From assembly GCA_963723005.1 (NCBI GenBank), contig CAVRPA010000006.1:10580-74579 (forward strand): a DNA stretch of 64,000 nt, read 5' to 3'. The translations under genes were made by a program, and so were the position numbers. The notes under the pieces were generated by a model. The model made no database searches and was not told the origin of the DNA. It worked only from the letters and a program-made list of their open reading frames with translations. How positions within the stretch are numbered: position 1 is the stretch's first letter; each line of letters starts with the position of its first letter. Positions 8,051-63,153 of this stretch are shown in pieces. The stretch is from an uncultured Acidobacteriota bacterium. GTDB lineage: Bacteria > Acidobacteriota > Vicinamibacteria > Vicinamibacterales > UBA2999.

Positions 8051-8113
8051 CGAACCCTGGAACCCTGCAACCCTAGAACCCTAGAACCTACGAACCTAGA
8101 GCCCTAGGACCCC
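8051..8113. repeat. tandem about 8-nt repeat array (RGAACCCT-like, about 8 units)
   Basis: Sequence cgaaccct ggaaccct gcaaccct agaaccct agaacct acgaacct agagccct aggacccc. Lies between convergent stops at 8045 and 8123. Confidence 0.9.
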
Positions 8114-15271: not shown

Positions 15272-16105
15272 CTACCCGTCTGCCGGCGCCGCAGCCTTCA
15301 CGAGCCTGGCGCCGTTCTCATCGACCGGCCGGCGGACACCTTCAACAGGCTCGTCGCACCACCGTCACCAGGACCTCCGCCACTGGCCACGGCGCTTCGT
15401 TGGCGACGGCCCAGATGGTCACGCGTCCCGTGGACGAGGTCTTGCCTTTCGTCCACGGCGTTGCCGGCGCGAACTCCGGGTAGATGAAGAGGTTCTCTTC
15501 GGCAGCGGCTTCGCCGAGCGGCGTGAACGTGAATCGCGGCACGATGTACAGCAGGCTGCGATCGAGCCGGTTCACCCGTGGATCTCGAACTGGGCGCCGC
15601 GGCGGGCGACGTCCATGCTCATCGCGACCAGGGTGTGCCACGACACGGACCCCGCGCTGTTGAGATGCCGGCGGCGCACCTCGATGCCGTAGGGATGAAG
15701 CGGAGGCTCGGGCGCCACGCCCGCCCGTCGCCGCCGCTGACGCCGCTGCACGGTGATGAGCGCCACCGGCACGCGTTCGGGCCGCTTGACGCCGGGCGTG
15801 CGTCGCAGCACGTCGAACCGCATGACCAGCGCATCGCCTTCCAGTCGAGGAAGGCCGAAGTGCAGCTGCCGATCCGTCAGCCGCGCCGGTTGCTTGAACT
15901 CGAGATCGATGCTGCTGACGCCCTGCAGTAGCGAGCGCTTGGCCAGGTAGTGCCACAGGGTCTCGATGACCACTCCGCGCTGACGCTGCCGGCGGAGTTG
16001 AGCATGCTGGAGTCGATGATCCTGTGCCGGGTGTCGAGCACGGCCGTGATGGCCTCGCCGGCCACCCGACGCCCGCCTGACTTCCGCTGCCCGCAATGGT
16101 TTCAT
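15272..16105 (-). pseudogene. decayed paralog of the 20996..21844 tandem hotdog-like gene
   Basis: Roughly 93-95% nucleotide identity to 20996-21844 by eye. Four indels relative to that copy: three 1-nt deletions and one 2-nt deletion. The product is split over three frames. Confidence 0.8.
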
Positions 16106-20995: not shown

Positions 20996-21844
20996 TTACG
21001 CGTCCTCAGCCACCAAAGCAGGGACCGCCTTGGCCACGGTTCCACCGTTCTCATCCACGGGCCGGCGCACGCCGTCAACCAGGCTGGTGCGCACCACCGT
21101 CACCAGGACCTCCGCCACTGGCCACGGCGCTTCGTTGGCGACGGCCCAGATGGTCACGCGTCCCGTGGACGACGTCTTGCCTTTCGTCCACGGCGTGGCC
21201 GGCGCGAACTCCGGGTAGATGAAGAGGTTCTCTTCGGCGGCGGCTTCGCCCAGCGGCGTGAACGTGAATCGCGGAACGATGTACAGAAGGCTGCGATCGA
21301 GCCGGTTGACCCGTGGGTCATCGAACTGGGCGCCGCGGCGGGCGACATCCATGCTCATCGCGACCAGGGTGTGCCACGACACGGAACCCGCGCTGTTGAG
21401 ATGCCGGCGGCGCACCTCGATACCGTAAGGATGAAGGGGCGGCTCGGGTGCCACGCCCGCCCGCCGCCGCCGCTGGCGCCGATGCACGGTGATGAGCGCC
21501 ACCGGCACGCGGTCGGGCCGCTTGACGCCGGGCGTGCGTCGCAGCACGTCGAACCGCATGACCAGCGCATCGGCTTCCAGTCGAGGGAGGCCGAAGTGCA
21601 GCTGTCGATCTGTCAGCCGCGCCGGTTGCTTGAACTCGAGATCGATGCTGGTAACGCCCTGCAGCAGCGACCGCTTGGCCAGGTAGTGCCACAGCGTCTC
21701 GATGTACCACTCCGCGCTGACGCTGCCGGCGGAGTTGAGCATGCCGGGGTCGATGATCCTGTGCCTGGTGTCGAGCACCGCCGTGATGGCCTCGCCGGCC
21801 ACACCGACCGCCCGCCTGACTTCCGCTGCCCGCAGTGGTTTCAT
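20996..21844 (-). CDS. hypothetical protein, possibly a tandem hotdog-fold (acyl thioesterase-like) protein
   Basis: Intact 282-aa ORF. Two internal repeats each carry LNSAGSVS in a hotdog-like context. The functional call is tentative. Confidence 0.6.
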   Translation of the reverse strand: MKPLRAAEVRRAVGVAGEAITAVLDTRHRIIDPGMLNSAGSVSAEWYIETLWHYLAKRSLLQGVTSIDLEFKQPARLTDRQLHFGLPRLEADALVMRFDVLRRTPGVKRPDRVPVALITVHRRQRRRRAGVAPEPPLHPYGIEVRRRHLNSAGSVSWHTLVAMSMDVARRGAQFDDPRVNRLDRSLLYIVPRFTFTPLGEAAAEENLFIYPEFAPATPWTKGKTSSTGRVTIWAVANEAPWPVAEVLVTVVRTSLVDGVRRPVDENGGTVAKAVPALVAEDA

Positions 21845-22035: not shown

Positions 22036-24100
22036 ATGGTCGGACGAACTATCTCCCACTACCGGATCGTTGCTCAGCTTGGCGCTGGCGGGATGGGAGT
22101 GGTGTATCGCGGCGAAGACACCCGGCTGGGCCGGGAGGTCGCGGTCAAGTTCGTCGTCCGAGGACGCCGCGCACGACGAGCAGGCGGTGCAGCGGCTGCG
22201 GTCCGAGGCGCGGGCCGCTTCGGCCCTGAACCACGCCAACATCTGCACCATCTACGACGTCGGCGAGGACGATGGCCACTTCTTCATCGTGATGGAGCTG
22301 ATGAAGGGCCAGACGCTGCGCGAGCGCCTGGCAGACGGGCCGCTCAAGGTCGATCAGCTCGTCGACGTCGGGATCGAGATCTCCGACGCCCTGCAGGCCA
22401 CGCACAGCGACGGCATCATCCATCGCGACATCAAGCCGGGCAACATCTTCCTGACCGAACGCGGCCACGTGAAGATCCTCGACTTCGGCCTCGCGAAGCT
22501 CACGCCGCACTTCTCGGGATCGGGCACGACGCACGAGATCGTTGACCACACCGGCGCCGGCGTGACGATCGGCACCGTCTCGTACATGTCGCCGGAGCAG
22601 GCGGCCGGCGAGCAGCTGGACGGCCGGACCGACTTGTTCTCGCTCGGCGTGGTCCTCTACGAGTGCGCGACCGGCCGGCATCCCTTCCCGGGCAAGACCT
22701 CGGCGGTGATCCTCGCCGCCATCCTCAACCGCTCGCCTGTCGCGCCGATCACCATCAATCCGGAGCTGCCGCTCCGCCTGCAGGAGATCATCAACAACTG
22801 CCTCGAGAAGGATCGCGAGCTGCGCTATCAGTCGGCGGCCGATCTGCGGGCGGATCTCAAGCGGCTGCGGCGCGACCTCGAGTCGGGACACTCGTGGCCG
22901 GTTGACTCGACGACGTCGGTCCGGCACTCGCACACCGGCGAGGCTCCCACGCCGAGCCGGGCGATGAGCACCGCGGGCAGTGGTCCTGCCACGGCCGCCG
23001 TCACGGCATCGCCAGCAAGACGCGCCGGCATGGCCATCGCCATCGTCGCCGTGCTTGCCGCTGGCGCCTACGGCGTGTGGCGCGGCATGGCGCCGGCCAC
23101 CCCTGCGACCGAGGCACCGGTCACCACCCTGTCGGATGCGGCGATCGACAGCCGCCTGTCGCTGGCACGTTCCAGCCTGAACGGACGGAACTACCGCGCG
23201 GCGATGTCGTACGCCACCTCGGTCCTCGCGGTCGATGCCGGCCACGCCGAAGCGACGCGGATTCGCGACGAAGCGCGGGAACAGCTCGCGCGCTTCGACG
23301 AAGCCGTGGGCAGGGCACGAGAGGAGTTGGCGGCCGGCGAGGTCCAGAGCGCGGCCCGCAGCCTCGAAGCGGCTCGCGCCATCGACCCCGCCTCGCCCGC
23401 TGTCGTCGAGCTGTCGTCGCGATTGTCGGAGGTCGCACGCGAGCGCGACGCCGCCGCGCGTGGCACCTCGGCGCGCCAGCTCCCCGCGCCGCCGCCCGCG
23501 CCGACGGATTCACGGCCGCAGCGGCCACCGGCCCGCGAGCCGGCCCCGGTAGCAACGGCCGCCGCTCCTGCTCCGCCCCAGGATCGACGCCCCGTTTCCT
23601 GCGACGGCGCTGCCGCCACCGCCCGCGCCGGCACCGGCGGCCACCGCCCGCACCCTCGCTGCCCGTGCCGGAGCCAACGGTCACCACCCCGCCTGCGGAA
23701 CCGCAGCCGAACCCGCCATCGCCGCCCGTCGCCGCGCGACCTCCGGAGCCAGCGGCGGCAACGCCCTCACGCGACGAAGCCGACGAGACGGCGATTCGCC
23801 GCGTCGTGGCGACGTATGGACGCGCCATCGAGACCAAGGACCTGGCGCTCTTCCGATCGGTCAAGCCGAACATGTCCGCCAACGAGGAGCGCAGGCTCCA
23901 GCAGGGGTTCCGGGCGGTGAACTCGCAGCGCGTGAACCTGACCATCGCCTCGATCGATCGCCGCGGCGAGACCGCGTCGGTCGTGGTGCAGCGGCGTGAC
24001 GTGCTCGAGGTGTCCGGCCGCACGCAGACGGCCGAAAGCCAGGCAGGTCCTGTCGCTCGCCCGGGCGGGTGACGGGTGGGTGATCGTGGAGATCCGATAG
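22036..24100 (+). pseudogene. Ser/Thr protein kinase with TM segment, TPR/coiled-coil-like region, Pro-rich linker and NTF2/SnoaL-like C-terminal domain; at least 3 frameshifts
   Basis: [13 protein letters not shown] is in one frame; [21 protein letters not shown] and SYMSPEQ are in another. Breaks near 22150, within 23570-23760, and near 24045. Confidence 0.75.
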
Positions 24101-37110: not shown

Positions 37111-37197
37111 GATCTGGCGAGGTCGTGATCTCGAGATCTGGATCTGCCGATCTACCGATCTCCAGATCTCTGATCCCTGATCCCTGATTCCTGAACC
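37111..37197. repeat. tandem 7-8-nt GATCYNN repeat array with nine GATC sites
   Basis: gatctgg...gatctcga gatctg gatctgcc gatctacc gatctcca gatctct gatccct gatccct gattcct gaaccc. Lies between and partly inside convergent gene ends. Confidence 0.9.
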
Positions 37198-38306
37198 CAT
37201 CGCTGCAAGACCAGGACGTAAATCGCCGCGTAGAGGCCGATGACGACCAGGCCGATCCATTCGATCCGAAGCGGCGTGAACTGAAAAGCCAGCACCAGGC
37301 CGCACATCAGCAGCCAGTGGGCGGCGACATAGGGTGCGGTGCCCATGCGACGGGCGGTCATCCCGAGGTTGTCGGAGTAGAGGCGAATCAGCGAGTCGAG
37401 CGAGTTGACGACGAAGACCACGCCCACCACCACCATCGCCGCCGCCAGCACCGGCGGCACGCGGACCTGCTGCCGGAAGTAGAAGTAGAGCACCGAGAAC
37501 CAGGCCGCCAGCGGGATGGAGGGGATCACGAGCAGCCCCGCCGCGAGCTGCCACGTGCGCATGCCGCCCACGAAGCGCGACACGAACTGCCCGATCATGA
37601 TGCTCCACGAGAACCACCAGAACAGATAGAACGCGTGATAGTCGGACATCGGCAGCACGAAGTGCGGCAGCCGCCGGAAGTACGGTCCGATGTCGGCGGC
37701 GCTGTAGGCGAGCCCTCGTGCGCCCATGCCCGACGCCAGCCACATCGCCACCACCAGCGCGCCGAACAGCCACATCGACGACACGCTGAGGACGCGGATA
37801 TAGCGGATGTGCGTGCTGGTCAGCACCGACAGCAACACGGTCGCGCCGACAATGCCATAGCGCGAGCCGTCATCGATGGACGGCACGTAGAACGGCAGGT
37901 TCCGCAGCAGCAGATGCGCGGTGAACGCGCAGGTCCCGACGATGATGATGTTGTTCACGACCTTCACTGCCGGGATCTCGAACAGCCGCAAGCGCGGCTC
38001 GACCGTCAGGAAGTAGAACGTCGTCAGGAAGTAGAAGCCCCAGACCAGGAATCCCCAGAATCCGAACGCGATGGCCAGCGGGTTCGCAAAGGCGTACTCG
38101 GGCTCGCGCGCGTAAAGGGGAAACTCCGTCAGCGGCAGCATGATGAGCCCGACGTCCAGGCCCGATGTGAACAGCAGGGTCATGAACCCGAGCAGCGACA
38201 GCGGCAGCGGGCCCTCGACGCGCCGTCCTCCCCACCGCACGATGATCACCGCTGAAGTCAGCAGCGTGACGATGATGGCGGCAGAGAGCACGGTCTGCGC
38301 GGTCAC
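37152..38306 (-). CDS. BCCT-like transporter-related membrane protein (short, 384 aa)
   Basis: Motifs TSGLDVGLIM and FWWFSWSIMIGQFVSRFVGG resemble BCCT signatures. The last roughly 12 codons are encoded by the GATC repeat array. Confidence 0.55.
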   Translation of the reverse strand: MTAQTVLSAAIIVTLLTSAVIIVRWGGRRVEGPLPLSLLGFMTLLFTSGLDVGLIMLPLTEFPLYAREPEYAFANPLAIAFGFWGFLVWGFYFLTTFYFLTVEPRLRLFEIPAVKVVNNIIIVGTCAFTAHLLLRNLPFYVPSIDDGSRYGIVGATVLLSVLTSTHIRYIRVLSVSSMWLFGALVVAMWLASGMGARGLAYSAADIGPYFRRLPHFVLPMSDYHAFYLFWWFSWSIMIGQFVSRFVGGMRTWQLAAGLLVIPSIPLAAWFSVLYFYFRQQVRVPPVLAAAMVVVGVVFVVNSLDSLIRLYSDNLGMTARRMGTAPYVAAHWLLMCGLVLAFQFTPLRIEWIGLVVIGLYAAIYVLVLQRWVQESGIRDQRSGDR

Positions 38307-38334: not shown

Positions 38335-41184
38335 CTATGTCGTGGGTGAGGGAGTGGCGAGCGAGACGCGCTTGGGCCACTCGAAGGGGCCGGGATCGGC
38401 GTAGTGATCGTGGCCGGCCTCGACCTGGCCGTCCGGCGACGCCGCCAGGAGGCCCTTCGGTCCCAGCGGCAGCTTGAGAATCAGCATCGCTTCCGCGGCC
38501 TCCACCGTGAGCGGCCGGGAGAACAGGAAACCCTGGGCGTGGGTGCAGCCGAGACGCTCCAGCTCGATGGCCTGCGCGTCGCTCTCGATCCCCTCGGCCA
38601 CGACGCTGGTGTTGAGCGTCCGCGCCAGCGCGAGGATGCTCTCGACAATCGGGCGATCCGAGCGCAGCAGGCTGTTGACGAACGACCGATCGATCTTGAG
38701 CGCGTCCACCGGCAGCTTGTGCAGGTGGCTGAGCGACGAGTAGCCGGTGCCGAAGTCGTCGAGATAGATCTTCACGCCGAAATCGCGCAGCTCGCGGAGC
38801 ATGCCGGCCGCGATCTTCGGGTTCTCCATCAACGCCGTCTCGGTGATCTCGAGGCGGAGGTCGCAGGGTTTCAGTCCGGCGTCGTGCACGGCCTGCTCGA
38901 CGACGGCGAGGAAGTTGTGCTGCAGGAGCTGCCGGCTCGACACGTTGACCGTGATGTAGTCCAGGCCCTCGGGGAACCGCCGCTGCCAGTCGGCAAAGGT
39001 ACGGCACGCCTGGCGCAGCACCCAGGTGCCGAGCGGCTCGATCAGGCCGACTTCCTCGGCCAGCGGGATGAATTGATCGGGCGGAACCGGTACGCCATTG
39101 CGCCTCCAGCGGATCAGCGACTCGAAGCCGACGCACATGCCCGAGGCGAGCAGCACGATCGGCTGATAGTGCACCTCGAAGTCGTTGTTGAGGACGGCGT
39201 GGCGGAGATCGTTTTCCAGCCCCAGGCGGTCGCGCACGCGCGCGTGCATGTCGGCGTCGAACAGCTCATGACGGGCCTTGCCGCGCGTCTTCGCGTGATA
39301 CATCGCGGTGTCGGCGTCACGCATGATCTCGTCGGGGCTGGCGTACTGCGGCAGGCCGATCGCGATGCCGATGCTGGCGGTGGTGTAGACCTCGCGCGCG
39401 CCGATCCGGAAGGGCGCGCTCAACGACTCCTGGATGCGGAAGGCCACGGCGTTGGCCTGCTGCTCGTCGGTCAGGCTGGTGAGCAGAATGGCGAACTCGT
39501 CACCGCCCAGCCGGGCGAGGAGGTCGGTGGGGCGCAGGCAGGTCTCGAGGCGGCGCGAGGCAGCGCTCAGCAGCTGGTCGCCGACGAGATGCCCGAGGCT
39601 GTCGTTGACGACTTTGAACCGGTCGAGATCCAGATAGAGCACTGCGAACAGTCCGCCGCCAAGCCGCGACTTGGATTCCACCAGCCGGCGGCCCAGCTGC
39701 TCCGCAAAGACCGTGCGATTGGCCAGGCCGGTCAGCGGATCGAGGAAGCCGGCGCTGCGAATCCGGTCCTGCGCGCTGGTGCGCTCGGTGAACGATCCGG
39801 CGATGCGTCCCGTGCGCCGAGTCGAGCCGCGCTCGGCAACGCCGCGGCACACAAAGGCGCGATAACCGCCGTCTTCGTGCCGGAGCCGGTGCTCATGCTG
39901 CAGGCGATCGGTGTGACCGTTGAGGTGCGCGTCGAGCGCGTCCCTCAGCGACGCGGCGTCATCCGGGTGGACACGCGACAGCCACTCCTCCGGGCGGCCC
40001 GGGCCCGACTGCGCCGGCAGGCCGACCATTTCCCGCCAGCGGCCGGAGAAGAAGCACTCCTGCTGCCGCAGATCCCATTCCCACAGTCCGTCGTTGGCGG
40101 CTTCGGCGGCCAGCGCCAGGCGCGCCTCGCTTCGACGCACCGCACCGTCCTCGCGCAGGCGTTCGGTGAGATCGTGCCAGATGAGGGTGGCGCCCCCATC
40201 CACGGGCATCACGCGCACCTCGAGGATGCGGGGAGTCGCGGCGAATGGCAGTACCACCCGCGCCACGGTCCGCGGATGGCGGTGGATCAGCACTTCGTCC
40301 ACGATCTGCGGGAGGTGGGTCCGGCCAAGTGCGGGCACGGCGACCGTGAGCGACTGCCCGAGCGCGCGCTCCGGCGGACATCCGACCAGCCGGGTCATCT
40401 CCTCGCTCCAGACCGTGACCGAGCCGCTGCCGTTGACCACGACCATGCCCTGCACCAGCGCGTCGGCGACCTCGCGGCGACGATGATCCTCGTGATGGCG
40501 ATTCAGGTAGCTGTCGTAGGCGCGATAGGTGAGGTAGAGCGGCACCGCCACCACCGGCAGCAGCACCCATTGCCCATGCGCGATGGCCTCGGCCAGGGCC
40601 ACCGCCAGGGCCGCGCCCACGGCATGGGGCCCGCAGCTGGCGAGGATGTGCGGCGCCCACTCCGGATCGATGGGGCGCCTCATGACGAGCGGCGCCACGA
40701 CCTTGGCCGTCGTACCGCGGCCGACGCAGTAGGCGATCACCGCGGCGGCAATCGGCAGCGCCTGCCACGGCCACACGAAATGGCCGATCGTCCCGCCGAG
40801 AATCAGGTGAACGGCGCCGGCGAACTGAATCGCCACGAGGGCCGCGGCGGTGCTGGTTGCGACGCGCACGAGGCGGCGCGGCTGACCGCCGAGCGCCAGG
40901 CAATCGGCGGCCTCACCGGCCGCCGCGATGACCATTGCCGCCGGCATCCCAAGCAGCATCAGCGCCGCCATCACAATCACGAACGAGGGGCGCATCGCGT
41001 CCGGGCCATCCTGCTGCGACGGACGCGCGGTGTAGGTGGCGACGGCGATAACGGCGAGCAGGAGTGCCGGGAACTCGAGCGTCCGGTCGGCCAGGGGCCA
41101 GCCCGTCACGCCAACCAGCACACCCGTCCCCACAAGGGCGGCGGCAATGATGGCGACTGACGTCCGAGAGATCGCTGTCGACAC
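38335..41184 (-). CDS. membrane sensor with PAS - PAS - GGDEF - EAL domains (c-di-GMP turnover)
   Basis: Intact 949-aa ORF with a GTG start. N-terminal multi-TM region. Motifs RLGGDEFAIL, GFESLIRW (EAL-motif variant) and DDFGTGYSSL. Confidence 0.85.
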   Translation of the reverse strand: MSTAISRTSVAIIAAALVGTGVLVGVTGWPLADRTLEFPALLLAVIAVATYTARPSQQDGPDAMRPSFVIVMAALMLLGMPAAMVIAAAGEAADCLALGGQPRRLVRVATSTAAALVAIQFAGAVHLILGGTIGHFVWPWQALPIAAAVIAYCVGRGTTAKVVAPLVMRRPIDPEWAPHILASCGPHAVGAALAVALAEAIAHGQWVLLPVVAVPLYLTYRAYDSYLNRHHEDHRRREVADALVQGMVVVNGSGSVTVWSEEMTRLVGCPPERALGQSLTVAVPALGRTHLPQIVDEVLIHRHPRTVARVVLPFAATPRILEVRVMPVDGGATLIWHDLTERLREDGAVRRSEARLALAAEAANDGLWEWDLRQQECFFSGRWREMVGLPAQSGPGRPEEWLSRVHPDDAASLRDALDAHLNGHTDRLQHEHRLRHEDGGYRAFVCRGVAERGSTRRTGRIAGSFTERTSAQDRIRSAGFLDPLTGLANRTVFAEQLGRRLVESKSRLGGGLFAVLYLDLDRFKVVNDSLGHLVGDQLLSAASRRLETCLRPTDLLARLGGDEFAILLTSLTDEQQANAVAFRIQESLSAPFRIGAREVYTTASIGIAIGLPQYASPDEIMRDADTAMYHAKTRGKARHELFDADMHARVRDRLGLENDLRHAVLNNDFEVHYQPIVLLASGMCVGFESLIRWRRNGVPVPPDQFIPLAEEVGLIEPLGTWVLRQACRTFADWQRRFPEGLDYITVNVSSRQLLQHNFLAVVEQAVHDAGLKPCDLRLEITETALMENPKIAAGMLRELRDFGVKIYLDDFGTGYSSLSHLHKLPVDALKIDRSFVNSLLRSDRPIVESILALARTLNTSVVAEGIESDAQAIELERLGCTHAQGFLFSRPLTVEAAEAMLILKLPLGPKGLLAASPDGQVEAGHDHYADPGPFEWPKRVSLATPSPTT

Positions 41185-41350
41185 GGAAACTATGTCTACA
41201 GCAATGCAAGGACCAGTTTTGTGTTTCGAGCTAAGCCTATGAAAATAAGCAGCTTAGGTCGTTAGCGTCGAGAACAGGCACGTTTGTACTGTTCAGGTAT
41301 GGCACACGCCCCAGCGGTTTTCGTATCCCTTTCGCGTCCGGGGGTCTGCC

Positions 41351-43270
41351 CTACGCAAGGCCGCGACTGACCAGAATTTCCTGCACGGCTCGATGCGCCT
41401 CGTCGAAGGCCTGGTTGGTGAAGGCCGCCGCGCCCGCGTCGGAATTCGCGATGGTCATGCGCCCGAAGCGCTGCCGGCCAATGACGTGCGGGCGCTGCTC
41501 GGGCGGAACGTCAGGATCGCCCAGCGTGTCGTACGTGTAGGAGTAGCCGTCCGGCCACCGGTTTGCCGCAATCCCAACGATGTCGGCCGCCGGGTCGAAG
41601 CCGGTGCCCGCGAGCATGCGCGCGAACTGACGCCGGATGGCGAGCTCGAAGTCCTCGAACTTCATCGAGCGCAGCTCCTGCTGGCCGATGCGGTTCTGCT
41701 CCTTGCGGGGCAGCCCGGGGCTGTTCGGATTGCGCACCATGTGCACGACGATGGGCTCGTCCGGTGTGGTGATGCCGCGATAGCCGCCGACCGTGGTGCC
41801 GGGATCGAGGCTTACGCTCGGGTGGTACATCCCGGGCGAGCTGATGCTGGCCACGCCGAGCTGCTTGAACGCCGTCCAGCGGCGGACCAGCACGTTGGTG
41901 TACAGCATCGGCACCTTCACCGAGTAGGCGAGTGCCTGCCGCTGCGTCTCGGGCAGCTCCGGCACGAGCCTGGGGATCATCGCGTTGTAGCAGGCCAGGA
42001 TCACGTTGCGCCCGCGCACCTGGTGCATGCGGCCGTCTCGCAGGTAGGCCACCTTCACCGCGCCGGCCGTGTCCATCGGACCGTCGTGAGCGACGCGTGC
42101 GACCGTGCTGTTCAAGCGGATCCGAACCGACGCCCCGTCATCGTCCAGCCTGCCGTAGTCCACCACCTGCTTGCCGATGGTGTGCATGTCGTGCGTCCCG
42201 GGAATGGCCTTTGGCACCAGGCGCGACACGAGCAACCGGGCCATGGAGGCATTGCCGTCCGGGAAGTGGAACGTGTAGCTCCCCTGCCGGAACTGCTCCT
42301 CCTTCGGCAGCCCCAGCCCGTCGAAGCCGACGGACCCACGGCGCGCCGCTTCGAGCGCCGGCGTCGTGTCCACGCGCTTGTTGTTGCGGCCGCCCTGCCC
42401 GAGGAAGTACGGCAGCGCGTCCGGGCTCATCTTCGCGTGCTTCAGCAGGAACTCCTGGTAGCTGATCTTCGCGAGCGTGGCCACTTTGTGCTCGACGGAC
42501 ATCCCTGCCATGTAGTCCGGGTTGTCGCCATGCAGCCGGATCAGGTCCTTGCGCGCGGCCTCCGAGAGCGGCGCCTTGCCGAAGAACTGATCCCACGGCA
42601 GCCGGCCCGTGCCCACCACCAGGCGGTCCTCGCCGAAATGCTCCTTGTCGAAGAAAGTGCTGGGACCGAGGTGGTAGGTGTCGAACAACTCGCGGCTGGT
42701 CATCTCCGCGTTCTTCGTCACGTCAATGCCGAGATCCTCCACCAGCCGCTTCGACATATAGCTGTAGGGATACGGCGTCGCGATGCTCATCGTCCCGCCG
42801 AAGCTGAGGAAAGTTCGGCCGTTGTAGACGAACTCGTTGCGCTTCGCGTGTCCGCCGAAGTCGTCGTGGTTGTCGAGAATCAGCACGCGCTGGGTGGCGC
42901 CGAGCGCCCGCTGCCAGAAGTACGCGGCCGCGAGCCCGGACAACCCGCCGCCGACGATCACCAGGTCGTAGGTTTCCCTGGTGTCAACGTCAATGCCGGG
43001 GAACTGTGCGAACGTGCCCGAGTCGATGGCGCCGAACGCTTCGACCGCTGACGCGTGCTGCCCGCGCAGCCCCAGACGGCGCGGTGGGTAGGCATCGGGC
43101 GTCGGTGACTGGGTGCTCTGGGCACCGGAAGCAGCCGACGCCGGCCGCGCATGCAGCGCACTCGACAGGGCACCGACACCGACCGCGACGCCGTTCAGAA
43201 AATCACGCCGATCGATGCGGCGGTCCATCCCGAGATCGCGGTACTCGCTGCGTTCGCTGGGGTCTGGCAC
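41351..43270 (-). CDS. Tat-exported FAD/NAD(P)-binding oxidoreductase (amine-oxidase / spermidine-dehydrogenase-like; function tentative)
   Basis: 639 aa. GTG at 43270 with GGAGG 5 nt upstream. Tat motif DRRDFLNGVAVGVGAL. Dinucleotide-binding motif YDLVIVGGGLSGLAAAY. Confidence 0.75.
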   Translation of the reverse strand: MPDPSERSEYRDLGMDRRIDRRDFLNGVAVGVGALSSALHARPASAASGAQSTQSPTPDAYPPRRLGLRGQHASAVEAFGAIDSGTFAQFPGIDVDTRETYDLVIVGGGLSGLAAAYFWQRALGATQRVLILDNHDDFGGHAKRNEFVYNGRTFLSFGGTMSIATPYPYSYMSKRLVEDLGIDVTKNAEMTSRELFDTYHLGPSTFFDKEHFGEDRLVVGTGRLPWDQFFGKAPLSEAARKDLIRLHGDNPDYMAGMSVEHKVATLAKISYQEFLLKHAKMSPDALPYFLGQGGRNNKRVDTTPALEAARRGSVGFDGLGLPKEEQFRQGSYTFHFPDGNASMARLLVSRLVPKAIPGTHDMHTIGKQVVDYGRLDDDGASVRIRLNSTVARVAHDGPMDTAGAVKVAYLRDGRMHQVRGRNVILACYNAMIPRLVPELPETQRQALAYSVKVPMLYTNVLVRRWTAFKQLGVASISSPGMYHPSVSLDPGTTVGGYRGITTPDEPIVVHMVRNPNSPGLPRKEQNRIGQQELRSMKFEDFELAIRRQFARMLAGTGFDPAADIVGIAANRWPDGYSYTYDTLGDPDVPPEQRPHVIGRQRFGRMTIANSDAGAAAFTNQAFDEAHRAVQEILVSRGLA

Positions 43271-43347
43271 GATCGCCTCCGTTTTGCTTCACTTCTTGCG
43301 TACGTGGCAGGAACTGCTTCGTTTTCGGCCCGATCGTGCCAGACCCC
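43259..43347 (-). promoter_or_regulatory. 89-nt hairpin leader, copy A (17-bp stem, 55-nt loop) sequestering the GTG start
   Basis: On the minus strand: GGGGTCTGGCACGATCG-N55-CGATCGTGCCAGACCCC. The 3' arm holds the start codon at 43270. GGAGG forms the last 5 nt of the loop. Confidence 0.6.
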
Positions 43348-43377
43348 GCGGCGGCCCGCGGTGGCCCCGGGCAACGG

Positions 43378-45213
43378 CTAGCGTTTCAATTCACGGGCGA
43401 CGGCCCTCAACGTGGCTCTGACCTTGTTGACCTCGCGCTGCAGTCCCACCTTGGCGAACGGCTTCATCTCCGCCGGCGCCTGCGGCAGGCTCGCCGCGGG
43501 TTCCAGCCGCGGCAGCGTCCCGAACTTCAGCGCCGGGTCGTGATCGAAGCGCTCGCCCTTGGCGTAGTTCAGCGGGACCAGCAGCCGCGCGATACGGCGC
43601 AGAGCCGCGTTGGTGCCGCGCCGCAGTTCGTGATCGCCAGGCGCCTTGGCCACGCGAGCGTCGATCGCGACGCGCCACGCGCCGATATCGGCTGCCAGGC
43701 GCGCGAGGTCGTGGATCACCGGGCCGAGGTCGATCTCGCCCGCGGCCGCCTCCTGGTACTTCGCCACCGCCGCGTGCATCTCCTCCACCGCCGCGGCGTA
43801 GTCGAACGGGTGCAGCGGCGCGTTGACGATCCGCACGATCGTCGTCAGGTAGACCATGAGGTCGCGCCGGAGGATCTCGAGATCCGCCACCGGCATCAGA
43901 TCGTCCACCGTGTGCCACGCGATGTTGCCGCCGCAGCCGCCGACGGCGTAGTAGCCGCGGCGCTGTCGTTCCTCGCCCGGGATGTTCGACAGCAGCATGT
44001 AGAGGCCGGTCGGCCCGATCTGGTTGAACGAGTAATCGCCGGCGCGGAGCGGGCGCACGCGAGTCGAGGGCAGGCCGAGCGCGTCCTGGATCGACGAACG
44101 GCAGACCGCGTCGGCCTCGGCCATCCACATCACTTCTTCGTACGCCGTGGCATCGGCACAGCCGGGTGAGTCGATATCGAGCTGCGCGATGCAGTGCTCG
44201 TCGAGCTCGTCGGCGAACGTGTCGGCGTACCACGTCGAACCGGCGTAACGGCCCGTGGAATGGCCGGGCCACCACGCGATCCGCACGGTTCGTTTCAATT
44301 GGCCGCGCAGCCCCCACAGCACGCGCGCCAGTTCAAGCAGCGCCGCGTCGCCGGTGGCGTTGTCGCCGATGCCTTCGTACCAGGAATCGTAATGGCCGTG
44401 CACCAGCAGGAACTCGTCCGCATCGTCCTGCCCGCGAATTTCCGCTACCGGCAGCAGGCAGCGCATCCAGCCCTCCCGCAGCCAGGTCTTGACCGAGGCC
44501 CGCACCGCGCCGCGCTGCACGTCGGCGATCAGCGCCTCGCCGTCCGCATGATTGATGCAGACGACCGGCACCGCGGGTTTGCGTCCCAGCGATTCGGCGG
44601 TTGGCGCGCCCCAAATCGAGGTGCAGATGCCTTCGTGCACGTTCTTCCCGGGGTGGATGAAGATCTGCGCGATGGCGCCGCGTCGCTCGAACGCGCCGAC
44701 CGAGGCCGGCATCGAGAATCCCTCGGTGAGCACGATGCGTCCACGCACCGGGTCGTCCGCGCCTCCGCCGCGAGCAGCGTCTGGAAGATCGAACAACGAG
44801 GACGTGCCGCCTGCATACTTCGAGGGCACGTAGCAGATCTCTCCTTCGACAGCGGCGTCGCCGGTGGAGCGGCCCATGGCCGGCGGCCGCGCGTGCAAGG
44901 TCCGCGTCGATAAGGTCGCACCGGCCGCGGTTCCCAAGCCGGAAGCGCCCCCCGCGCCGGCGATCGAGATGCTCAACTCGGCGCGCACCGGATTGCTGAT
45001 GTACAGCTCTGGAGTGTGCAGCGTCACCGGCACGCCAAGAGCCTTCAGCCGATCGACGATGTAGCGGCCGGCGACTTCTTCGTCCGGCGTGCCCGATTCG
45101 CGGACGAGCGTCACGAACTTCTCCAGCAGCGCCTGCGACTCGTCGAGGCGGATCGCCTCTCGTGCCGTCGCCTCGAGCGCCTCGTCCTTGAACACGTTGA
45201 TCACAGTGGACAT
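43378..45213 (-). CDS. M28-family zinc aminopeptidase-like protein
   Basis: Intact 611-aa ORF. Metal-site context HGHYDSWYEGIGDNATGDAALLELARVL. Confidence 0.7.
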   Translation of the reverse strand: MSTVINVFKDEALEATAREAIRLDESQALLEKFVTLVRESGTPDEEVAGRYIVDRLKALGVPVTLHTPELYISNPVRAELSISIAGAGGASGLGTAAGATLSTRTLHARPPAMGRSTGDAAVEGEICYVPSKYAGGTSSLFDLPDAARGGGADDPVRGRIVLTEGFSMPASVGAFERRGAIAQIFIHPGKNVHEGICTSIWGAPTAESLGRKPAVPVVCINHADGEALIADVQRGAVRASVKTWLREGWMRCLLPVAEIRGQDDADEFLLVHGHYDSWYEGIGDNATGDAALLELARVLWGLRGQLKRTVRIAWWPGHSTGRYAGSTWYADTFADELDEHCIAQLDIDSPGCADATAYEEVMWMAEADAVCRSSIQDALGLPSTRVRPLRAGDYSFNQIGPTGLYMLLSNIPGEERQRRGYYAVGGCGGNIAWHTVDDLMPVADLEILRRDLMVYLTTIVRIVNAPLHPFDYAAAVEEMHAAVAKYQEAAAGEIDLGPVIHDLARLAADIGAWRVAIDARVAKAPGDHELRRGTNAALRRIARLLVPLNYAKGERFDHDPALKFGTLPRLEPAASLPQAPAEMKPFAKVGLQREVNKVRATLRAVARELKR

Positions 45214-45230
45214 CGACGTTCCCCGCCCCT

Positions 45231-45327
45231 TCGAACCGCAGAACCCTTAGAACCGAGAACCCTGAGAACCCTAGAACCCCTCGAACCTTGGAACCTTAGA
45301 ACCTTAGAACCTAGAACCTAGAACCCC
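45231..45327. repeat. tandem 7-9-nt repeat array (GAACCYTA-like, about 12 units)
   Basis: gaaccgca gaaccctta gaaccgagaaccct gagaaccct agaacccctc gaacctt ggaacctta gaacctta gaaccta gaaccta gaacccc. Same unit family as the array at 8051-8113. Confidence 0.9.
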
Positions 45328-45332
45328 GTCCC

Positions 45333-46772
45333 CTACCGCGCCTCGTCGAAGAATATCGCGAGGTTGGCCGCCGGCGTGGGCGGCGTCAGCCGGCTGACGA
45401 CGATGAACGTGAGCGCGCTCGCCACCACCCCGACTTCCACCGAGTCGATACCGTGGGAGGCGAAGCTGTGTTGCAGCGTGAACGTCCAGGTGAGGCAGGC
45501 GATGAACCCGACCACCATGCTCCAGATGGCGCCCTCTTTGGTGCCGCGCCGCCAGTTCAGCCCCAGCACCACGGGCACGAAGAAGAAGCTGGCGATGAAC
45601 TTCGACTGCTCGATCACGATCGCCTGCACGTCGCCCAGTTTCAGCGTGGCGACCCAGAACGGGATGATGCCCAGCACGACGATGGAGAGGCGGTTCACCC
45701 AGACCAGCCGGCGCTCGGTGGCCGCCGGGTTGACGAGCCGCTTGTAGAGATCGTGCGCGAAGGCGCCGCCGGTGACGAGCAGGATCGAGTTGACGGTGGA
45801 CATGATCGCCGACAGCATCGCGATCAGGAACAGCGAGCCGAGGAGCGGCGGCATCACGGTGGAGGCCATGATGCTCGAGGCCTGATCGGGAAACGGCAGG
45901 TACGGGAACACGCCGCGCATGCCGATGCCGAGCGTGGTGACGCACGAACCGATGATCACCTGCAGCAGCATCGAGATGCCGATCGCGTAGCGCACCGTCG
46001 CCACGTCGCGCATCGAGTAGTAACGCGTCATCTCGTAGGGCGCGGCGGCGATGCCGAAGCCGAACGACAAGCCGAACGCGAGCAGTTCCTTCCACGAGAA
46101 CCACCAGCCGGTGGTACGCGGTTCAATCGACCCGACGTACTCGCCGAGCGCCGTGAACCCGCCGACGTGCACCAGCACCACCGGGACGGCGCAGACGAGC
46201 GCCAGCACCATGATCAGCGTCTGGATGAACTCGATGTACGAGCTCGCCCGCACCCCGCCCAGCACGGTGTAGAAGCCGGTGCTGGCCAGCAGCGCGGCCA
46301 TCGCCACCATGGGCGCCACGCCGAACACCGCGGACGCGATCTCGCCGATGGCCTGGAACTGCGCGGTGAGGAGTATCGAATAGGTGACGATGATGAGAGC
46401 GGCGGCCAGCGTCCGGGCGCCCTCGCTGGCGAAGCGGGTGCCGACGTAGTCCGCCACGGTCAGGGCGCCGAAACGCCGCAGCTTTGGCGCCACGAACAGC
46501 GCGGAGGTGGCCCAGCCGGCCCAGACACCGAACCAGATCCAGGTCCAGCTCACGCCGGTCAGATAGAGCCGGCCGAGCGTGCCGACGAAGGTGCCGGCGC
46601 TGATCTGCGTCGCCGCGAGGACGGCGCCGCCGACCCACGGGCCGATGGTCCGGCCGGCGACCAGGAACTCCACCTCGGAGGTCGCGCGGCGGTAGCCCCA
46701 GAGCGACACGCCGAAGACCACGCCGAAGTAGGCGAGCGTGACCCAGAGCAGGACGCCGGAGTCAGCGACCAT
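45333..46772 (-). CDS. sodium:solute symporter (SSS) family transporter
   Basis: 479 aa from the ATG at 46772 (MVADSGVLLWVTLAYFG). This is the C-terminal part of the 677-aa track ORF, whose upstream extension is non-protein-like. Confidence 0.85.
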   Translation of the reverse strand: MVADSGVLLWVTLAYFGVVFGVSLWGYRRATSEVEFLVAGRTIGPWVGGAVLAATQISAGTFVGTLGRLYLTGVSWTWIWFGVWAGWATSALFVAPKLRRFGALTVADYVGTRFASEGARTLAAALIIVTYSILLTAQFQAIGEIASAVFGVAPMVAMAALLASTGFYTVLGGVRASSYIEFIQTLIMVLALVCAVPVVLVHVGGFTALGEYVGSIEPRTTGWWFSWKELLAFGLSFGFGIAAAPYEMTRYYSMRDVATVRYAIGISMLLQVIIGSCVTTLGIGMRGVFPYLPFPDQASSIMASTVMPPLLGSLFLIAMLSAIMSTVNSILLVTGGAFAHDLYKRLVNPAATERRLVWVNRLSIVVLGIIPFWVATLKLGDVQAIVIEQSKFIASFFFVPVVLGLNWRRGTKEGAIWSMVVGFIACLTWTFTLQHSFASHGIDSVEVGVVASALTFIVVSRLTPPTPAANLAIFFDEAR

Positions 46773-46893
46773 CGGGACCTCTCTGCTGGTCGCGCAGTGC
46801 CGCGCGCCACGCCCACAGGAAGTAGATCGCGAGCCATCCGGCGGCGGCGACGAAGAACCCGTAGAAGCTCCACCCGAAGCCGGGGTCAGGCAC
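46762..46893 (-). CDS. 43-aa single-TM protein, putative small subunit of the SSS transporter (DUF3311-like)
   Basis: Not in the ORF track. GTG at 46893 with GGAGG 5 nt upstream. Product MPDPGFGWSFYGFFVAAAGWLAIYFLWAWRAALRDQQRGPDGR. Its stop lies 8 nt inside the SSS gene (11-nt overlap). Confidence 0.6.
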   Translation of the reverse strand: MPDPGFGWSFYGFFVAAAGWLAIYFLWAWRAALRDQQRGPDGR

Positions 46894-46970
46894 GATCGCC
46901 TCCGTTTTGCTTCATTTCTTGCGCACGTGGCAGGGACTGCATCGTTTTCGGCCCTATCGTGCCTGACCCC
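46882..46970 (-). promoter_or_regulatory. 89-nt hairpin leader, copy B
   Basis: 82 of 89 positions are identical to copy A. The arms are GGGGTCAGGCACGATAG and CGATCGTGCCTGACCCC. One U:A to A:U compensatory swap is present. Confidence 0.6.
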
Positions 46971-47586
46971 GACGACCCCGACGGCCCCGGGCCCAGGCGG
47001 CGGAGGCCAGGACCAGCGTCCCGATCGCCACGACGTCCATGGCAAAGGCGATATTGAACGGCGCCGGCTCACCGGGCATCGCGTACGGCACGCGCACGAA
47101 CGCCGGCAGGTGACCCAGCATGGCCGACCCCTCCTGGCCCACCCACGCCAGCCCGGGCATGGTGCCGGCCGCCGTAGCGCCGGCGGGAATCCGGACGCGA
47201 AGCGCGACTGCCTGCGATCGACCGTCCGCCGGCACGGTCGGGATCCACAGCGGGCATCGCCCCGCGCTCGAGCCCGGCTGCTCGACGGCATAGCGCAGCG
47301 TGTAGGCCGCGCCCTCCGGCCGCACCACGAGCGCGCGCGTCCGCCCGACTGCCCGAGCCTCGCCAATCGGCGCGGCTCCGCGGATCTCGCTCAGCTCGAT
47401 GCGAGCGCCATCCACCACCTCCACGCGGTGCTCCACCTGGGCGACGCCTTCCACGTTCACGGTCAGGGTGACGACACACGCGGTGGGCGACTGGAACTCA
47501 ACCAGCACCTCCGCCCCGTGCAGCACCGGCGCGGCGACGGCCGGCAACGCAGACGTCAGCGCCGCGAGCAGGAAGACGACAAACAC
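46954..47586 (-). CDS. exported hypothetical protein with C-terminal TM anchor
   Basis: 210-aa ORF. Signal-like N-terminus and a C-terminal hydrophobic segment plus an Arg-rich tail. Its stop codon lies inside the 5' arm of leader copy B. Confidence 0.5.
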   Translation of the reverse strand: MFVVFLLAALTSALPAVAAPVLHGAEVLVEFQSPTACVVTLTVNVEGVAQVEHRVEVVDGARIELSEIRGAAPIGEARAVGRTRALVVRPEGAAYTLRYAVEQPGSSAGRCPLWIPTVPADGRSQAVALRVRIPAGATAAGTMPGLAWVGQEGSAMLGHLPAFVRVPYAMPGEPAPFNIAFAMDVVAIGTLVLASAAWARGRRGRRGQAR

Positions 47587-47683
47587 GCCGCGGCTGCAGC
47601 GCCATGGCGTCAGGCCAGGTCGAACGTCAGCTCACCCGGCTCGAGCCCGAAGCAGTCGGAGATGTCGCTGATCGTCCGGCGCG

Positions 47684-47712
47684 TGTGCATGGCGACGAAT
47701 GATACCTATAAT
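47684..47712 (+). promoter_or_regulatory. candidate promoter (perfect TATAAT) that could give a leaderless mRNA
   Basis: TATAAT at 47707-47712, with an ATG at 47720 located 7 nt after it. The -35 region (TGTGCA) is weak. Confidence 0.3.
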
Positions 47713-48694
47713 GCCCGCCATGAGAGGCCTCCTTCTGGCGCTGACGCTCGTGTCCTGGGTCGCCGCAACCCATCCCGTGGCCACGCAGTCGAAATACCAG
47801 GGCGCCGACGGGCGCGTGCGCGTGGCGCTATCGCGGCAACCGCTCTCGCCCACCGGCCCCTCGAAGGGTCCCGCGACGATGGCGGAGGGCGGCATTCAGG
47901 GGATCCTGAAGGAGATGGGCGCGACGGTCCGCGTCGAGGAAGCGCGCCTGACGCGCGAAGAAGAGACGGAGTACGGCGGCTGGAAGAAGCTGGGCATGTC
48001 CCTGGGCCACTTCGCCGATATCGTCTCGAAGAACGAGCGCGACGGATATCTGACGGTGGGACTGCTGGCCACCTGTCCGTCGATGCCGGGCCTGGTGGCG
48101 GGCCTGCAGCGATCGGGGCCGACGCCCGAGGCGATCAGGATCGGGATGCTGTGGCTCGACGCCCATCCCGATCTCAACACGCCTGAAACGACGCGCAGCG
48201 GCTCGCTCGGCGGCATGCCTGTCGCTGTGGCGACCGGACGGGCGCTCCAGGGCATGCGGCTGGATGCCAAGCTCGATCCGCCGCTACCGGACCGTCACGT
48301 GGTCATGGGTGGCGTGCGACTCACCGACCCGCTCGAGCAGCACCTCGTTGACACGTCGATGATCGAACAGCTCAGCGTGGATGACCTGCGCAACATGACG
48401 CCGGCGGTCTGGGCCGCACTCGATCGCCTGAACCGGACCACCGACAAGATCTACGTGCACATCGACATGGACGTGCTCGATCCGCGAGAGGTGATGGCGC
48501 ACGGCAACAAGGTGCCGGGCGGTCCCTCGAGCGAGGAACTCGCGCGCCTCTTCGAGCAGATCTTCACCCGCTACCCCAAAGCCTCCGCCATAGGATTTGC
48601 CACCATCCCGCCCACCGACGAGGGCGGACTGTCGATTGCGGCGCTGAACCGCATGATTGCCGCCGCGGTGCGCGGCGTGCAGGCGCGCAAGTGA
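47699..48694 (+). CDS. arginase/agmatinase/ureohydrolase-family protein with signal peptide
   Basis: 331-aa ORF. Motifs WLDAHPDLNTP and YVHIDMDVLDP. The true start may be the ATG at 47720 (MRGLLLALTLVSW). Confidence 0.7.
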   Translation: MIPIMPAMRGLLLALTLVSWVAATHPVATQSKYQGADGRVRVALSRQPLSPTGPSKGPATMAEGGIQGILKEMGATVRVEEARLTREEETEYGGWKKLGMSLGHFADIVSKNERDGYLTVGLLATCPSMPGLVAGLQRSGPTPEAIRIGMLWLDAHPDLNTPETTRSGSLGGMPVAVATGRALQGMRLDAKLDPPLPDRHVVMGGVRLTDPLEQHLVDTSMIEQLSVDDLRNMTPAVWAALDRLNRTTDKIYVHIDMDVLDPREVMAHGNKVPGGPSSEELARLFEQIFTRYPKASAIGFATIPPTDEGGLSIAALNRMIAAAVRGVQARK

Positions 48695-48730
48695 CGATGC
48701 GCTGACAGCAGGCCGGCCAACGCGCGGTGA

Positions 48731-49099
48731 TCAGGACGGCCCGAAGCTCCGAATCGCCTCTGCCTCCGACTCGAAGACCTCGAACACGGTGAACAGCCGG
48801 GCGATCTGCAGCAGCTCTTCGGCCTTCACCGTCGGATGCAACAGCTTCAGGGCGCCGCCCTTGCGCAACGCCGTCATGTACTTGCACACGAGCATGCCGA
48901 TGCCGGCGCTGTCGAGCCGCGTGACGCGCCGCAGGTCGAGCACAATCCGGTTGTGACCCTCGGCCACGAGCCGGTCAACGCAATCGCGCAGCGGAATCTC
49001 CCCTTCCTCGAGGACCAGACGGCCATCGAGCTCGAGGATGGTGACGTCATCCTCGACCCGGCGTTCAGTGATACTGATCGAAGCCACCTGACACCTCAC
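48731..49099 (-). CDS. STAS-domain anti-sigma-factor antagonist (SpoIIAA/RsbV-like)
   Basis: 122 aa. The pattern VTILELDGRLV..LDLRRVTRLDSAGIGML includes a candidate phosphorylatable Ser in LDSAG. Confidence 0.8.
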   Translation of the reverse strand: MRCQVASISITERRVEDDVTILELDGRLVLEEGEIPLRDCVDRLVAEGHNRIVLDLRRVTRLDSAGIGMLVCKYMTALRKGGALKLLHPTVKAEELLQIARLFTVFEVFESEAEAIRSFGPS

Positions 49100-58492: not shown

Positions 58493-58548
58493 GGCAAGGC
58501 AAAAGGCAAAAGGAAAGGCAGAAGGCAGAAGGCAGAAGGCAGAAAGGG
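58493..58548. repeat. purine-rich heptamer array, (GGCAGAA)x4 plus degenerate GGCAAAA units
   Basis: Four perfect GGCAGAA units at 58517-58544. Lies in the divergent intergenic region and ends 8 nt before the ATG at 58556. Confidence 0.9.

Positions 58549-63089: not shown

Positions 63090-63153
<64 letters not shown>

Follow-up and report, generated by a model that had tools for sequence, protein, structure and literature searches.

An 89-nucleotide palindromic module carries translation-initiation signals at several gene junctions in a narrow Vicinamibacterales lineage

Introduction

What does a very stable hairpin do when it contains the start codon of the gene that follows it? The question is raised by a 64-kb stretch of DNA from an uncultured Vicinamibacterales bacterium (contig CAVRPA010000006.1; "the window" hereafter), in which the start codon of an spdH-like gene lies inside a 17-bp stem. 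An original prediction, made from the letters of the sequence, described this 89-nt hairpin (E1) as a 5' leader of that gene and likened it to a riboswitch expression platform, an RNA thermometer, or a translational operator that is opened by a protein or a small RNA (sRNA). We find that E1 is one of three copies of a module, which we call E, at three gene junctions within 6 kb. We give a probability of about 0.5 to the reading that E is a lineage-specific, palindrome-delimited junction module that supplies the initiation region of the next gene, and that it acts as a hairpin for translational coupling at the second copy (E2) and as a default block on translation at E1.

Results

The start codon of the spdH-like gene is inside a stable stem

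The two arms of E1 (GGGGTCTGGCACGATCG and CGATCGTGCCAGACCCC, as read on the minus strand, which is the coding strand) are 17 nt each, 100% complementary, and 55 nt apart. An inverted-repeat search and the sequence itself bear out the perfect stem, the GGAGG at the end of the loop, and the GTG in the 3' arm (coordinates are in Table 1). The minus-strand RNA (121 nt) is predicted to fold with an energy of -58.4 kcal/mol (z = -5.1), which none of 200 shuffled sequences matched, and the 17-bp duplex on its own gives -36.3 kcal/mol. Because E1 is a palindrome at the DNA level, the plus-strand RNA folds about equally well (z = -4.8). In the ensemble, the probability that the GTG is unpaired is 0.00, which agrees with the claim that the start codon is inaccessible when the stem forms; the Shine-Dalgarno (SD) sequence in the loop is roughly half exposed (about 0.6). 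Every copy of E places the start codon or ribosome-binding site in a stable structure. In silico, the stem of E1 is intact in the minimum free energy (MFE) structure from 25 to 90 °C, and neither the MFE nor the centroid structures within the element contain a competing helix for the 3' arm (an alternative or anti-sequestor pairing).

One ortholog of E1 differs in its loop. In a 95% relative (L005 46-166), a 32-nt GC-rich insertion lengthens the small hairpin of the loop to a CCTGCT…AGCAGG hairpin, the long stem has a G·G mismatch, and the GTG is predicted to be 34% unpaired.

The GTG at 43270 appears to be the functional start of spdH, for three reasons. A translated stretch, SE..E[YF]RDLGM, is common to 120 homologs and lies upstream of the next methionine; within the window, no in-frame start other than this GTG precedes the stretch; and in orthologs, 3- and 6-nt indels right after the E1 arm preserve the reading frame. 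The product has a TAT signal domain that scores above the curated cutoff of NCBIfam, as well as domains that bind flavin adenine dinucleotide (FAD) or NAD, in keeping with the earlier description of an FAD oxidoreductase exported by the twin-arginine translocation (Tat) pathway. Its homologs are labelled spermidine dehydrogenase by the Joint Genome Institute (JGI).

E is a repeated module with exact ends

Two other copies of E were absent from the original prediction: the full copy E2 and what is left of another one, E3. The cluster, read along the minus strand, consists of open reading frame (ORF) 210, E2, a short peptide, a sodium:solute symporter (SSS), an M28 peptidase, E1, spdH, the E3 remnant, a GGDEF/EAL gene, and a BCCT gene. 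All three copies are in direct orientation, within 6 kb, at three gene junctions. In the intact E1 and E2, the loop ends with the SD sequence and the 3' arm holds the GTG and first codons (M-P-D-P) of the next gene, while the 5' arm is in, or just past, the end of the preceding cistron. E3 precedes no gene. It is full-length at the post-spdH site in L005, L007, and L011 (L001-L015 denote loci of relatives, and CAVPRP corresponds to L007/L008). We rejected the idea that the window is an "empty site" for E3, as the 10-nt remnant of the 3' arm (GGCAGACCCC) rules this out.

The paralogs are 87-95% identical within the 89 nt and about 35% identical in the adjoining 6 nt on each side. Because identity collapses at these ends, the repeated unit is bounded exactly by the palindrome. 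E also contributes residues to proteins: RGQAR and then the stop codon to ORF210, and MPDP to both the peptide and SpdH. The idea of a gene-specific 5' leader does not survive these findings: E1 begins 30 nt past the M28 stop codon in a co-oriented cluster, and one of the three copies has no gene behind it.

The sequence and the stem of E are conserved

We collected 12 non-identical copies of E, always at the same three junctions. Orthologous copies (the window compared with L006 and L011) are 92.1% identical, as compared with 77.2% at the third codon positions of the flanking genes (Fisher p = 2.6e-12). At the distance of L013, the corresponding values are 70.6% and 56-68%. These comparisons support purifying selection on E. 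The most conserved segments are the 25-nt A/G-rich 3' half of the loop (91%) and the 3' arm (95%). GGAGG is retained in 5/5 E1 copies, 3/4 close E2 copies, and 0/3 E3 copies, and the loss in E3 may be a single ancestral event. Since the copies group by position and not by genome, there has been no recent movement of E.

Conservation of the pairing, which had been proposed as a test, holds for the stem but not for the loop. In the stem, 95% of cells are paired and two pairs show compensatory double changes (UA>CG and UA>AU); 6-7 of 500 shuffles reach the observed values. In the loop, the covariation term from RNAalifold is +0.44, and pairs are either invariant or broken. Two features that were noted in the loop of E1, a small hairpin (GCAG-UUC-CUGC) and a pair of AAAACG boxes, do exist, but they lack covariation and are lost from the copy in L013.

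E is confined to a few relatives, and E2 is probably the oldest copy

Look-ups of the exact protein sequences of spdH (from both candidate starts) and of the M28 peptidase gave no record, and relatives were found through homolog searches instead. The carriers of E are the window, L009, L005, CAVPRP, L011, and L006. E1 has orthologs at the same junction in L005, L009, L011, and CAVPRP; E2 has orthologs in L006, L008, and L011, with a diverged one in L013. Among species-representative genomes, the invariant 23-mer has exact matches at 3 loci in 2 metagenome-assembled genomes (MAGs), at the E locus only. A degenerate pattern that fits 10 of the 12 copies had one real match in a metagenome collection, from the same organism. 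(Another locus from the metagenome scan, L010, is a chance match within a coding sequence.) E was therefore not found to be a high-copy repeat with the dispersal of a repetitive extragenic palindrome (REP) or a miniature inverted-repeat transposable element (MITE), an outcome that the original prediction had considered. Viral, plasmid, and phage collections contained no match to E, and nhmmer profiles found no further full copy in the 64-kb window and about 239 kb from relatives. With cmscan against Rfam (E <= 10; 41000-49000), neither E1 nor E2 had a match, in line with the earlier remark that the hairpin was not recognised as a named family; the only matches were chance ones elsewhere in the region (SNORD23, mir-6790, and Ms_IGR-4). 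We found no literature on such repeats in Vicinamibacteria. Homologous loci do carry E within the narrow clade, but relatives beyond it have no E at spdH. Overall, E is confined to one narrow lineage of Vicinamibacterales and was found in a few uncultured soil bacteria.

The two sides of E1 have different histories. The block ORF210-peptide-SSS-M28 is conserved across the Vicinamibacterales, with M28 as its last gene. Orthologs of spdH at <=87% identity (L001, L002, and L012) have a plain SD-ATG start and different upstream neighbours, and their homology with the window restarts exactly at codon 2, directly past the last base of E1. In the lineage of the window, the SSS block is joined to an spdH...BCCT...AMP-ligase block, and the synteny downstream is as in L001/L002.

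E2 reaches further back. L013 (SSS, 89% amino acid identity) has a diverged, full-length ortholog of E2 at the same junction, with 13-bp arms and one mismatch; its 5' arm is read by the upstream ORF228, again in the same frame, and MVPDP opens the peptide. The loop of this copy is about 35% diverged, without the AAAACG boxes and the mini-hairpin. L014 has TAG-TC-ATG at the junction and no E, and L015 is also without E. Among homologs of the peptide, the N-terminal extension VPDP/VPGP occurs in one subclade only, and the base state is MGFGW. Given this distribution, E2 is, as far as the sequences tell, the oldest copy, and E1 and E3 arose later in the lineage of the window.

L006 retains the region downstream of E3, spdH is absent, and a single E stands at the spdH site. 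This copy is a mosaic, E1-like in its 5' part and E3-like in the middle. A homologous deletion between E1 and E3 is the simplest account; given gene conversion between copies, the history of the crossover is ambiguous.

Two related observations come from other relatives. At the ORF217/peptide junction of L015 (~7805-7875), there is an unrelated GC-rich hairpin with a 22-bp stem, whose 5' arm lies in the last codons of the upstream ORF and whose loop holds the stop codon. A hairpin may thus be functionally required here, or the junction may be a hot spot at which palindromes insert. Also, a half-copy of E (the 5' arm, an AAAACG box, and the GCAG-TTY-CTGC mini-hairpin, with no 3' half) is present in other genera (L001 11089-11137; L002 13229-13273; L003 8342-8386). 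There it makes up the last codons and 3' flank of the gene for a BCCT-like transporter that closes the spdH cluster, in the frame that ORF210 uses for the arm of E2 (…G-L/Q-A-R…).

A terminating ribosome is predicted to open E2 but not E1

We folded each junction in silico, either free or with the mRNA under a ribosome terminating at the upstream stop codon masked. At E2, masking raised the probability that the GTG is unpaired from 0.00 to 0.39-0.44 in the window, from 0.02 to 0.46-0.47 in L006, from 0.00 to 0.34-0.44 in L008, and from 0.00 to 0.10 in L011. At E1, it went from 0.00 to 0.00 in both the window and CAVPRP. The upstream stop codon is within or beyond the 5' arm of E2 in all 5 genomes, with a stop-to-arm distance of -17 in all E2 copies; the stop codon upstream of E1 is 1-20 nt before the stem in orthologs other than that of the window.

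In the mechanism that we propose, the cluster would be transcribed as one polycistronic mRNA, the arms would pair and conceal the start codon in a stem of about -36 kcal/mol, and the downstream gene would be translated only once the stem is opened. At E2, whose 5' arm ends in the stop codon of ORF210, the stem would most likely be opened by the ribosome that completes this ORF, and the peptide would be translated by RNA-unfolding coupling. E1 and E3 would be later duplicates that gave the relocated spdH a ready-made initiation region. Because the M28 stop lies so far before the stem, unfolding by the ribosome is predicted not to free the GTG of E1 in the window; E1 would thus be a strong default block on the translation of spdH, with another putative opener (RNase III-type cleavage, a helicase, a protein, or an sRNA).

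A scan for sigma-70-type promoters across 41000-48000 found nothing anywhere, and for that reason it is uninformative for this phylum; no terminator was found at E. Inspection of the loop for an internal promoter revealed no convincing hexamers. A candidate sigma-54 promoter in the arm (TGGCAC) was rejected by inspection: the GC of its -12 box is displaced by one position, and neither strand has the TTGC. We see an obvious promoter region only in the 112-nt divergent spacer that precedes ORF210; elsewhere, the gaps at the copies of E leave no room for one.

The gene cluster and its surroundings

The features of the cluster are listed in Table 1. ORF210 is coding, as judged from codon-position conservation. 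Queries of Pfam and NCBIfam with the peptide (46762-46893) returned no family.

Table 1. Coordinates of the copies of E and of the adjacent genes in the window.
Feature	Position	Strand	Description
E1	43259..43347	-	Flagged 89-nt palindromic module; between M28 peptidase gene and spdH-like gene
E1 5' arm (GGGGTCTGGCACGATCG)	43331..43347	-	Begins 30 nt past M28 stop codon (43380-43378)
E1 3' arm (CGATCGTGCCAGACCCC)	43259..43275	-	Holds GTG start (43270-43268) and codons 2-4 (P-D-P) of spdH-like gene
E1 SD sequence GGAGG	43276..43280	-	Final 5 nt of loop, abutting 3' arm; kept in 5/5 E1 orthologs
E2	46882..46970	-	Second copy, 91% identical, same orientation, 3.6 kb upstream of E1; between ORF210 and 43-aa peptide/SSS symporter genes
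E2 signals	GGAGG 46903-46899; GTG 46893-46891	-	Initiation of 43-aa peptide ORF
Stop codon (TAG) of ORF210	46954..46956	-	Final 3 nt of E2 5' arm (GATAG); ORF210 is translated across the whole arm
E3 remnant (GGCAGACCCC)	41341..41350	-	10-nt tail of 3' arm, directly past TAG of spdH
ORF210	46954..47586	-	Upstream cistron of E2; signal peptide and C-terminal anchor; no Pfam family
43-aa hydrophobic peptide ORF (MPDPGFGWSFYGFF...)	46762..46893	-	Start codon and first 4 codons from E2 3' arm; conserved family
SSS gene	45333..46772	-	ATG overlaps end of peptide ORF by 11 nt
M28-family peptidase gene	43378..45213	-	Upstream cistron of E1
spdH-like Tat-signal flavoprotein gene	41351..43270	-	Start codon from E1; stop codon TAG 41353-41351
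P-D-P, proline-aspartate-proline; aa, amino acids.

At the 5' edge of E2, the window has a 9-nt tandem duplication (GTCGGGGTC x2; 46965-46989) that copies the 6 nt at the start of the arm and extends the tail of ORF210 by R-R-G; it is not in L008. Divergent from the cluster is a gene for a secreted protein of the arginase family (47699-48694, plus strand). Considered alongside the spdH-like oxidoreductase, the SSS symporter, and the M28 peptidase, it suggests that the locus serves to scavenge arginine, polyamines, or peptides.

Tandem repeats with a period of 7-8 nt are found at gene junctions of the window (8052-8112, 37165-37198, 45227-45326, 58496-58547, and 63090-63153) and of L002 (~7930-7990). 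Their units are GAACCCTA, GATCCCT, AGAACCCT, AAGGCAA, and CCGGTAT/CCGGCTG. One array is between the SSS and M28 genes, another replaces the tail of the BCCT gene, and L002 has AAGGCAG repeats upstream of spdH. Such repeats seem to be a habit of the lineage. Elsewhere in the window, a segment of ~710 nt is present twice (15355-16065 and 21090-21802) with 95-97% identity and a spacing of 5.7 kb, near a gene for a Ser/Thr protein kinase (22070-23920); this looks like a recent paralogous duplication. Finally, a single long ORF (8123-10849, minus strand) encodes an unusual fusion of a sulfate-permease/STAS transporter with a C-terminal polyphosphate kinase 2 domain.

Discussion

Alternative explanations

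The stem that hides the start codon and the SD sequence next to it are what a riboswitch or a thermometer would need, with the loop serving as an aptamer or melting element that frees the start, and the genes plausibly act on amines or peptides. Both readings fail their defining tests. No Rfam family matches, and the consensus fold of the loop lacks the covariation expected of an aptamer. The loop has tolerated a 32-nt insertion in the E1 of L005, and in L013 it is ~35% diverged and has lost the AAAACG boxes. One copy precedes no gene. The 3' arm has no alternative partner within the element, and a stem of -36 kcal/mol that persists to 90 °C in silico is not a thermometer. The riboswitch and the thermometer of the original prediction are strongly disfavoured, and we regard either as highly improbable. 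The third idea, an operator that is opened by a protein or sRNA (or, as we would add, by an RNase), may hold for E1. In a broader form, E1, E2, and E3 would all be sites at which one factor (an RNA-binding protein, an sRNA, or RNase III) binds or cleaves, and this factor would co-regulate genes for the catabolism of amines and peptides. The same sequence does precede two functionally related cistrons, conservation is strongest in the A/G-rich half of the loop and the 3' arm, and the helix reaches well past 17 bp if the flanks are included. Correia elements are cut or protected by RNase III (PMC2649163). Moreover, as a ribosome that stops at the end of the M28 gene is predicted to leave E1 closed in the window, something else has to open it. 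Yet no candidate factor or complementary sRNA was identified; the likeness between copies may merely reflect recent duplication; the E2 of L013 keeps its arms without either AAAACG box or the SD sequence; and E3 retains the same loop though no gene comes after it. We consider a shared factor unlikely, if still a serious contender.

E might also be a selfish or neutral palindrome of the MITE or REP kind that hopped or was copied locally, with only those insertions surviving that restored a start codon; the overlap with the start would then be incidental and the hairpin would have no regulatory role. The unit does end exactly at its inverted repeats and has several copies, half-copies lie at the 3' end of the BCCT gene in other genera, and L015 has an unrelated palindrome at the same junction. 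Both ends of E extend ORFs in frame, as Rickettsia palindromic elements (RPEs) do (PMC10969869), and copies flank a gene whose presence varies, as spdH is missing from L006. But E has just 3 copies in the 64-kb window, and a stretch of 6 kb contains them all; they cluster by position, which indicates no recent movement; and their conservation is well above that of synonymous sites. The flanks of the 12 copies show no target-site duplication, none of the 34 ORFs of the window has a transposase or integrase domain, and mobile-element and viral collections have nothing similar. In short, of the hallmarks of a MITE, E has the terminal inverted repeats (17 bp) and lacks target duplication, dispersed copies, and a parent transposase. 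(A fixed 5' target of the IS200/IS605 type was also rejected, as the flanks of E are inconsistent.) We judge this explanation to be distinctly unlikely. Much less probable is a recombination site acting at the DNA level, which would mark boundaries like those of integron cassettes for the insertion and excision of spdH. Direct copies do bracket spdH, the single mosaic E of L006 stands in its place, spdH is joined exactly at the end of the palindrome, and E1 is at the fusion point of two synteny blocks. Against this, the arms have neither R''/R' core sites (RYYYAAC/GTTRRRY) nor extrahelical bases, no integrase was found in the window, and RecA-type recombination between 89-nt repeats with ~90% identity suffices to explain L006. 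Least probable of all is that spdH starts at a downstream ATG (43228, MDRRIDRRDFL) and that E1 only stabilises the mRNA between cistrons or directs its processing. Some gene callers use this start for homologs (P0004 and P0010), and the GTG is never unpaired at equilibrium; but no SD sequence precedes the ATG, the stretch from GTG to ATG is conserved as protein across 120 homologs with its frame kept through indels, and every copy of E1 has the GGAGG.

We prefer the junction module, with coupling at E2 and a default block at E1, but several points weigh against it. The E1 copies of the window and CAVPRP lack the geometry needed for coupling, which is weak in L011; the E2 of L013 has no GGAGG, and masking frees its start just slightly. 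We infer that the cluster is co-transcribed and has no internal promoter. The stem is not strictly maintained: copies have 0-3 mismatches, and both covarying pairs also occur in mismatched states. The arms may have been homogenised by quasi-palindrome template switching during replication rather than by selection on the RNA. Translation of spdH may start from the downstream ATG. Finally, diverged extra copies elsewhere in the carrier MAGs are possible, as the profile scans covered the window and ~239 kb.

A bolder version of the junction module would make E a portable cassette for translation initiation: copied to junctions with base-precise ends, it would donate an SD sequence, a GTG, and three codons, capture an spdH that lacks a start, enslave the translation of the captured gene to the hairpin, and be lost by recombination between flanking copies, as in L006. 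We view this version as speculative and rather improbable. If true, it would be a structure-defined mechanism for the growth of operons that is distinct from integrons and from classical MITEs.

Comparison with known systems

The nearest working analogues of E are coupling hairpins and co-transcribed palindromic repeats such as the Correia and enterobacterial repetitive intergenic consensus (ERIC) elements. Hairpins that couple translation by RNA unfolding are known from phage f1 genes VII/IX, from the coat and lysis genes of MS2, and from many operon junctions (PMC12548453). In these systems a stable hairpin hides the downstream start, the upstream ORF enters the 5' strand, and about 60 nt between stop and start are tolerated if the stop is inside the hairpin; E2 fits this in every ortholog. 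E is unlike them in that it is a discrete module that was copied to other junctions and that itself carries the start and first codons. Also, coupling in f1 VII/IX survives a spacing of +62 nt only while the stop codon stays within the hairpin (PMC12548453), and with the upstream stop 30 nt outside the hairpin, E1 has the geometry that abolished coupling in that experiment.

The Correia elements of Neisseria (Correia repeat enclosed elements, CREE, or Neisseria miniature insertion sequences, NEMIS) resemble E in being co-transcribed, palindrome-bounded elements of ~100 nt, and the RNA hairpins of their terminal repeats alter the expression of adjacent genes via cleavage or protection by RNase III (PMC2649163, PMC5039591). 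But CREE have hundreds of dispersed copies, a TA target duplication, a site for integration host factor (IHF), and outward promoters (PMC2649163, PMC5039591). The copies of E number 3 and are clustered, and neither a target duplication nor a promoter was detected. E also supplies an SD sequence and start codon, which CREE do not, and by inspection the two are not similar in sequence. ERIC and other bacterial MITEs are likewise small and imperfect palindromes, found in intergenic regions that are transcribed within operons, and in some hosts their copy number can be low (PMC10969869, PMC2229807). Unlike them, E is undispersed, has no known parent insertion sequence, and overlaps the coding ends on both sides; there is no sequence similarity. 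RPEs are palindromic repeats that, like E, are read in frame and add residues to their host proteins; they lie inside genes, have no start codons or SD sequences, and reach dozens of copies per genome, whereas E gives an SD sequence and a start (PMC10969869).

At the level of architecture, E shares with riboswitch platforms and RNA thermometers an initiation region that is occluded by a stem; it differs in having no aptamer, no alternative pairing, and no Rfam family, and its stem is far too stable to melt. The attC sites of integrons are imperfect palindromes of 57-141 bp between co-oriented cassettes, and the copies within one array are alike; attC follows the ORF of its cassette and does not contain the start of the next gene. 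E, too, is a palindrome between co-oriented genes, with a gene that is present or absent between two copies. Unlike attC, its arms are perfectly paired, with no R''/R' core (no GTTRRRY) and no extrahelical bases, and the window contains no IntI integrase. What is unusual about E is that several junctions reuse one palindrome-delimited module with a complete initiation region, which in one case is joined at codon 2 to a gene that has been relocated.

Implications

For annotation, the lesson is that a hairpin that sequesters a start codon next to a metabolic gene does not, on its own, amount to evidence of a riboswitch. The reach of the finding is limited, in that it opens no major question and E is restricted to a few uncultured soil Vicinamibacterales. 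If our reading is true, E would be a natural example of a palindromic repeat that is reused as a complete translation-initiation region at several operon junctions, with an ancestral copy that resembles the textbook coupling hairpin unfolded by the ribosome. It would connect selfish palindromic repeats with translational coupling, two fields that are usually kept separate, and spdH would provide a testable model for how a relocated gene acquires its expression signals.

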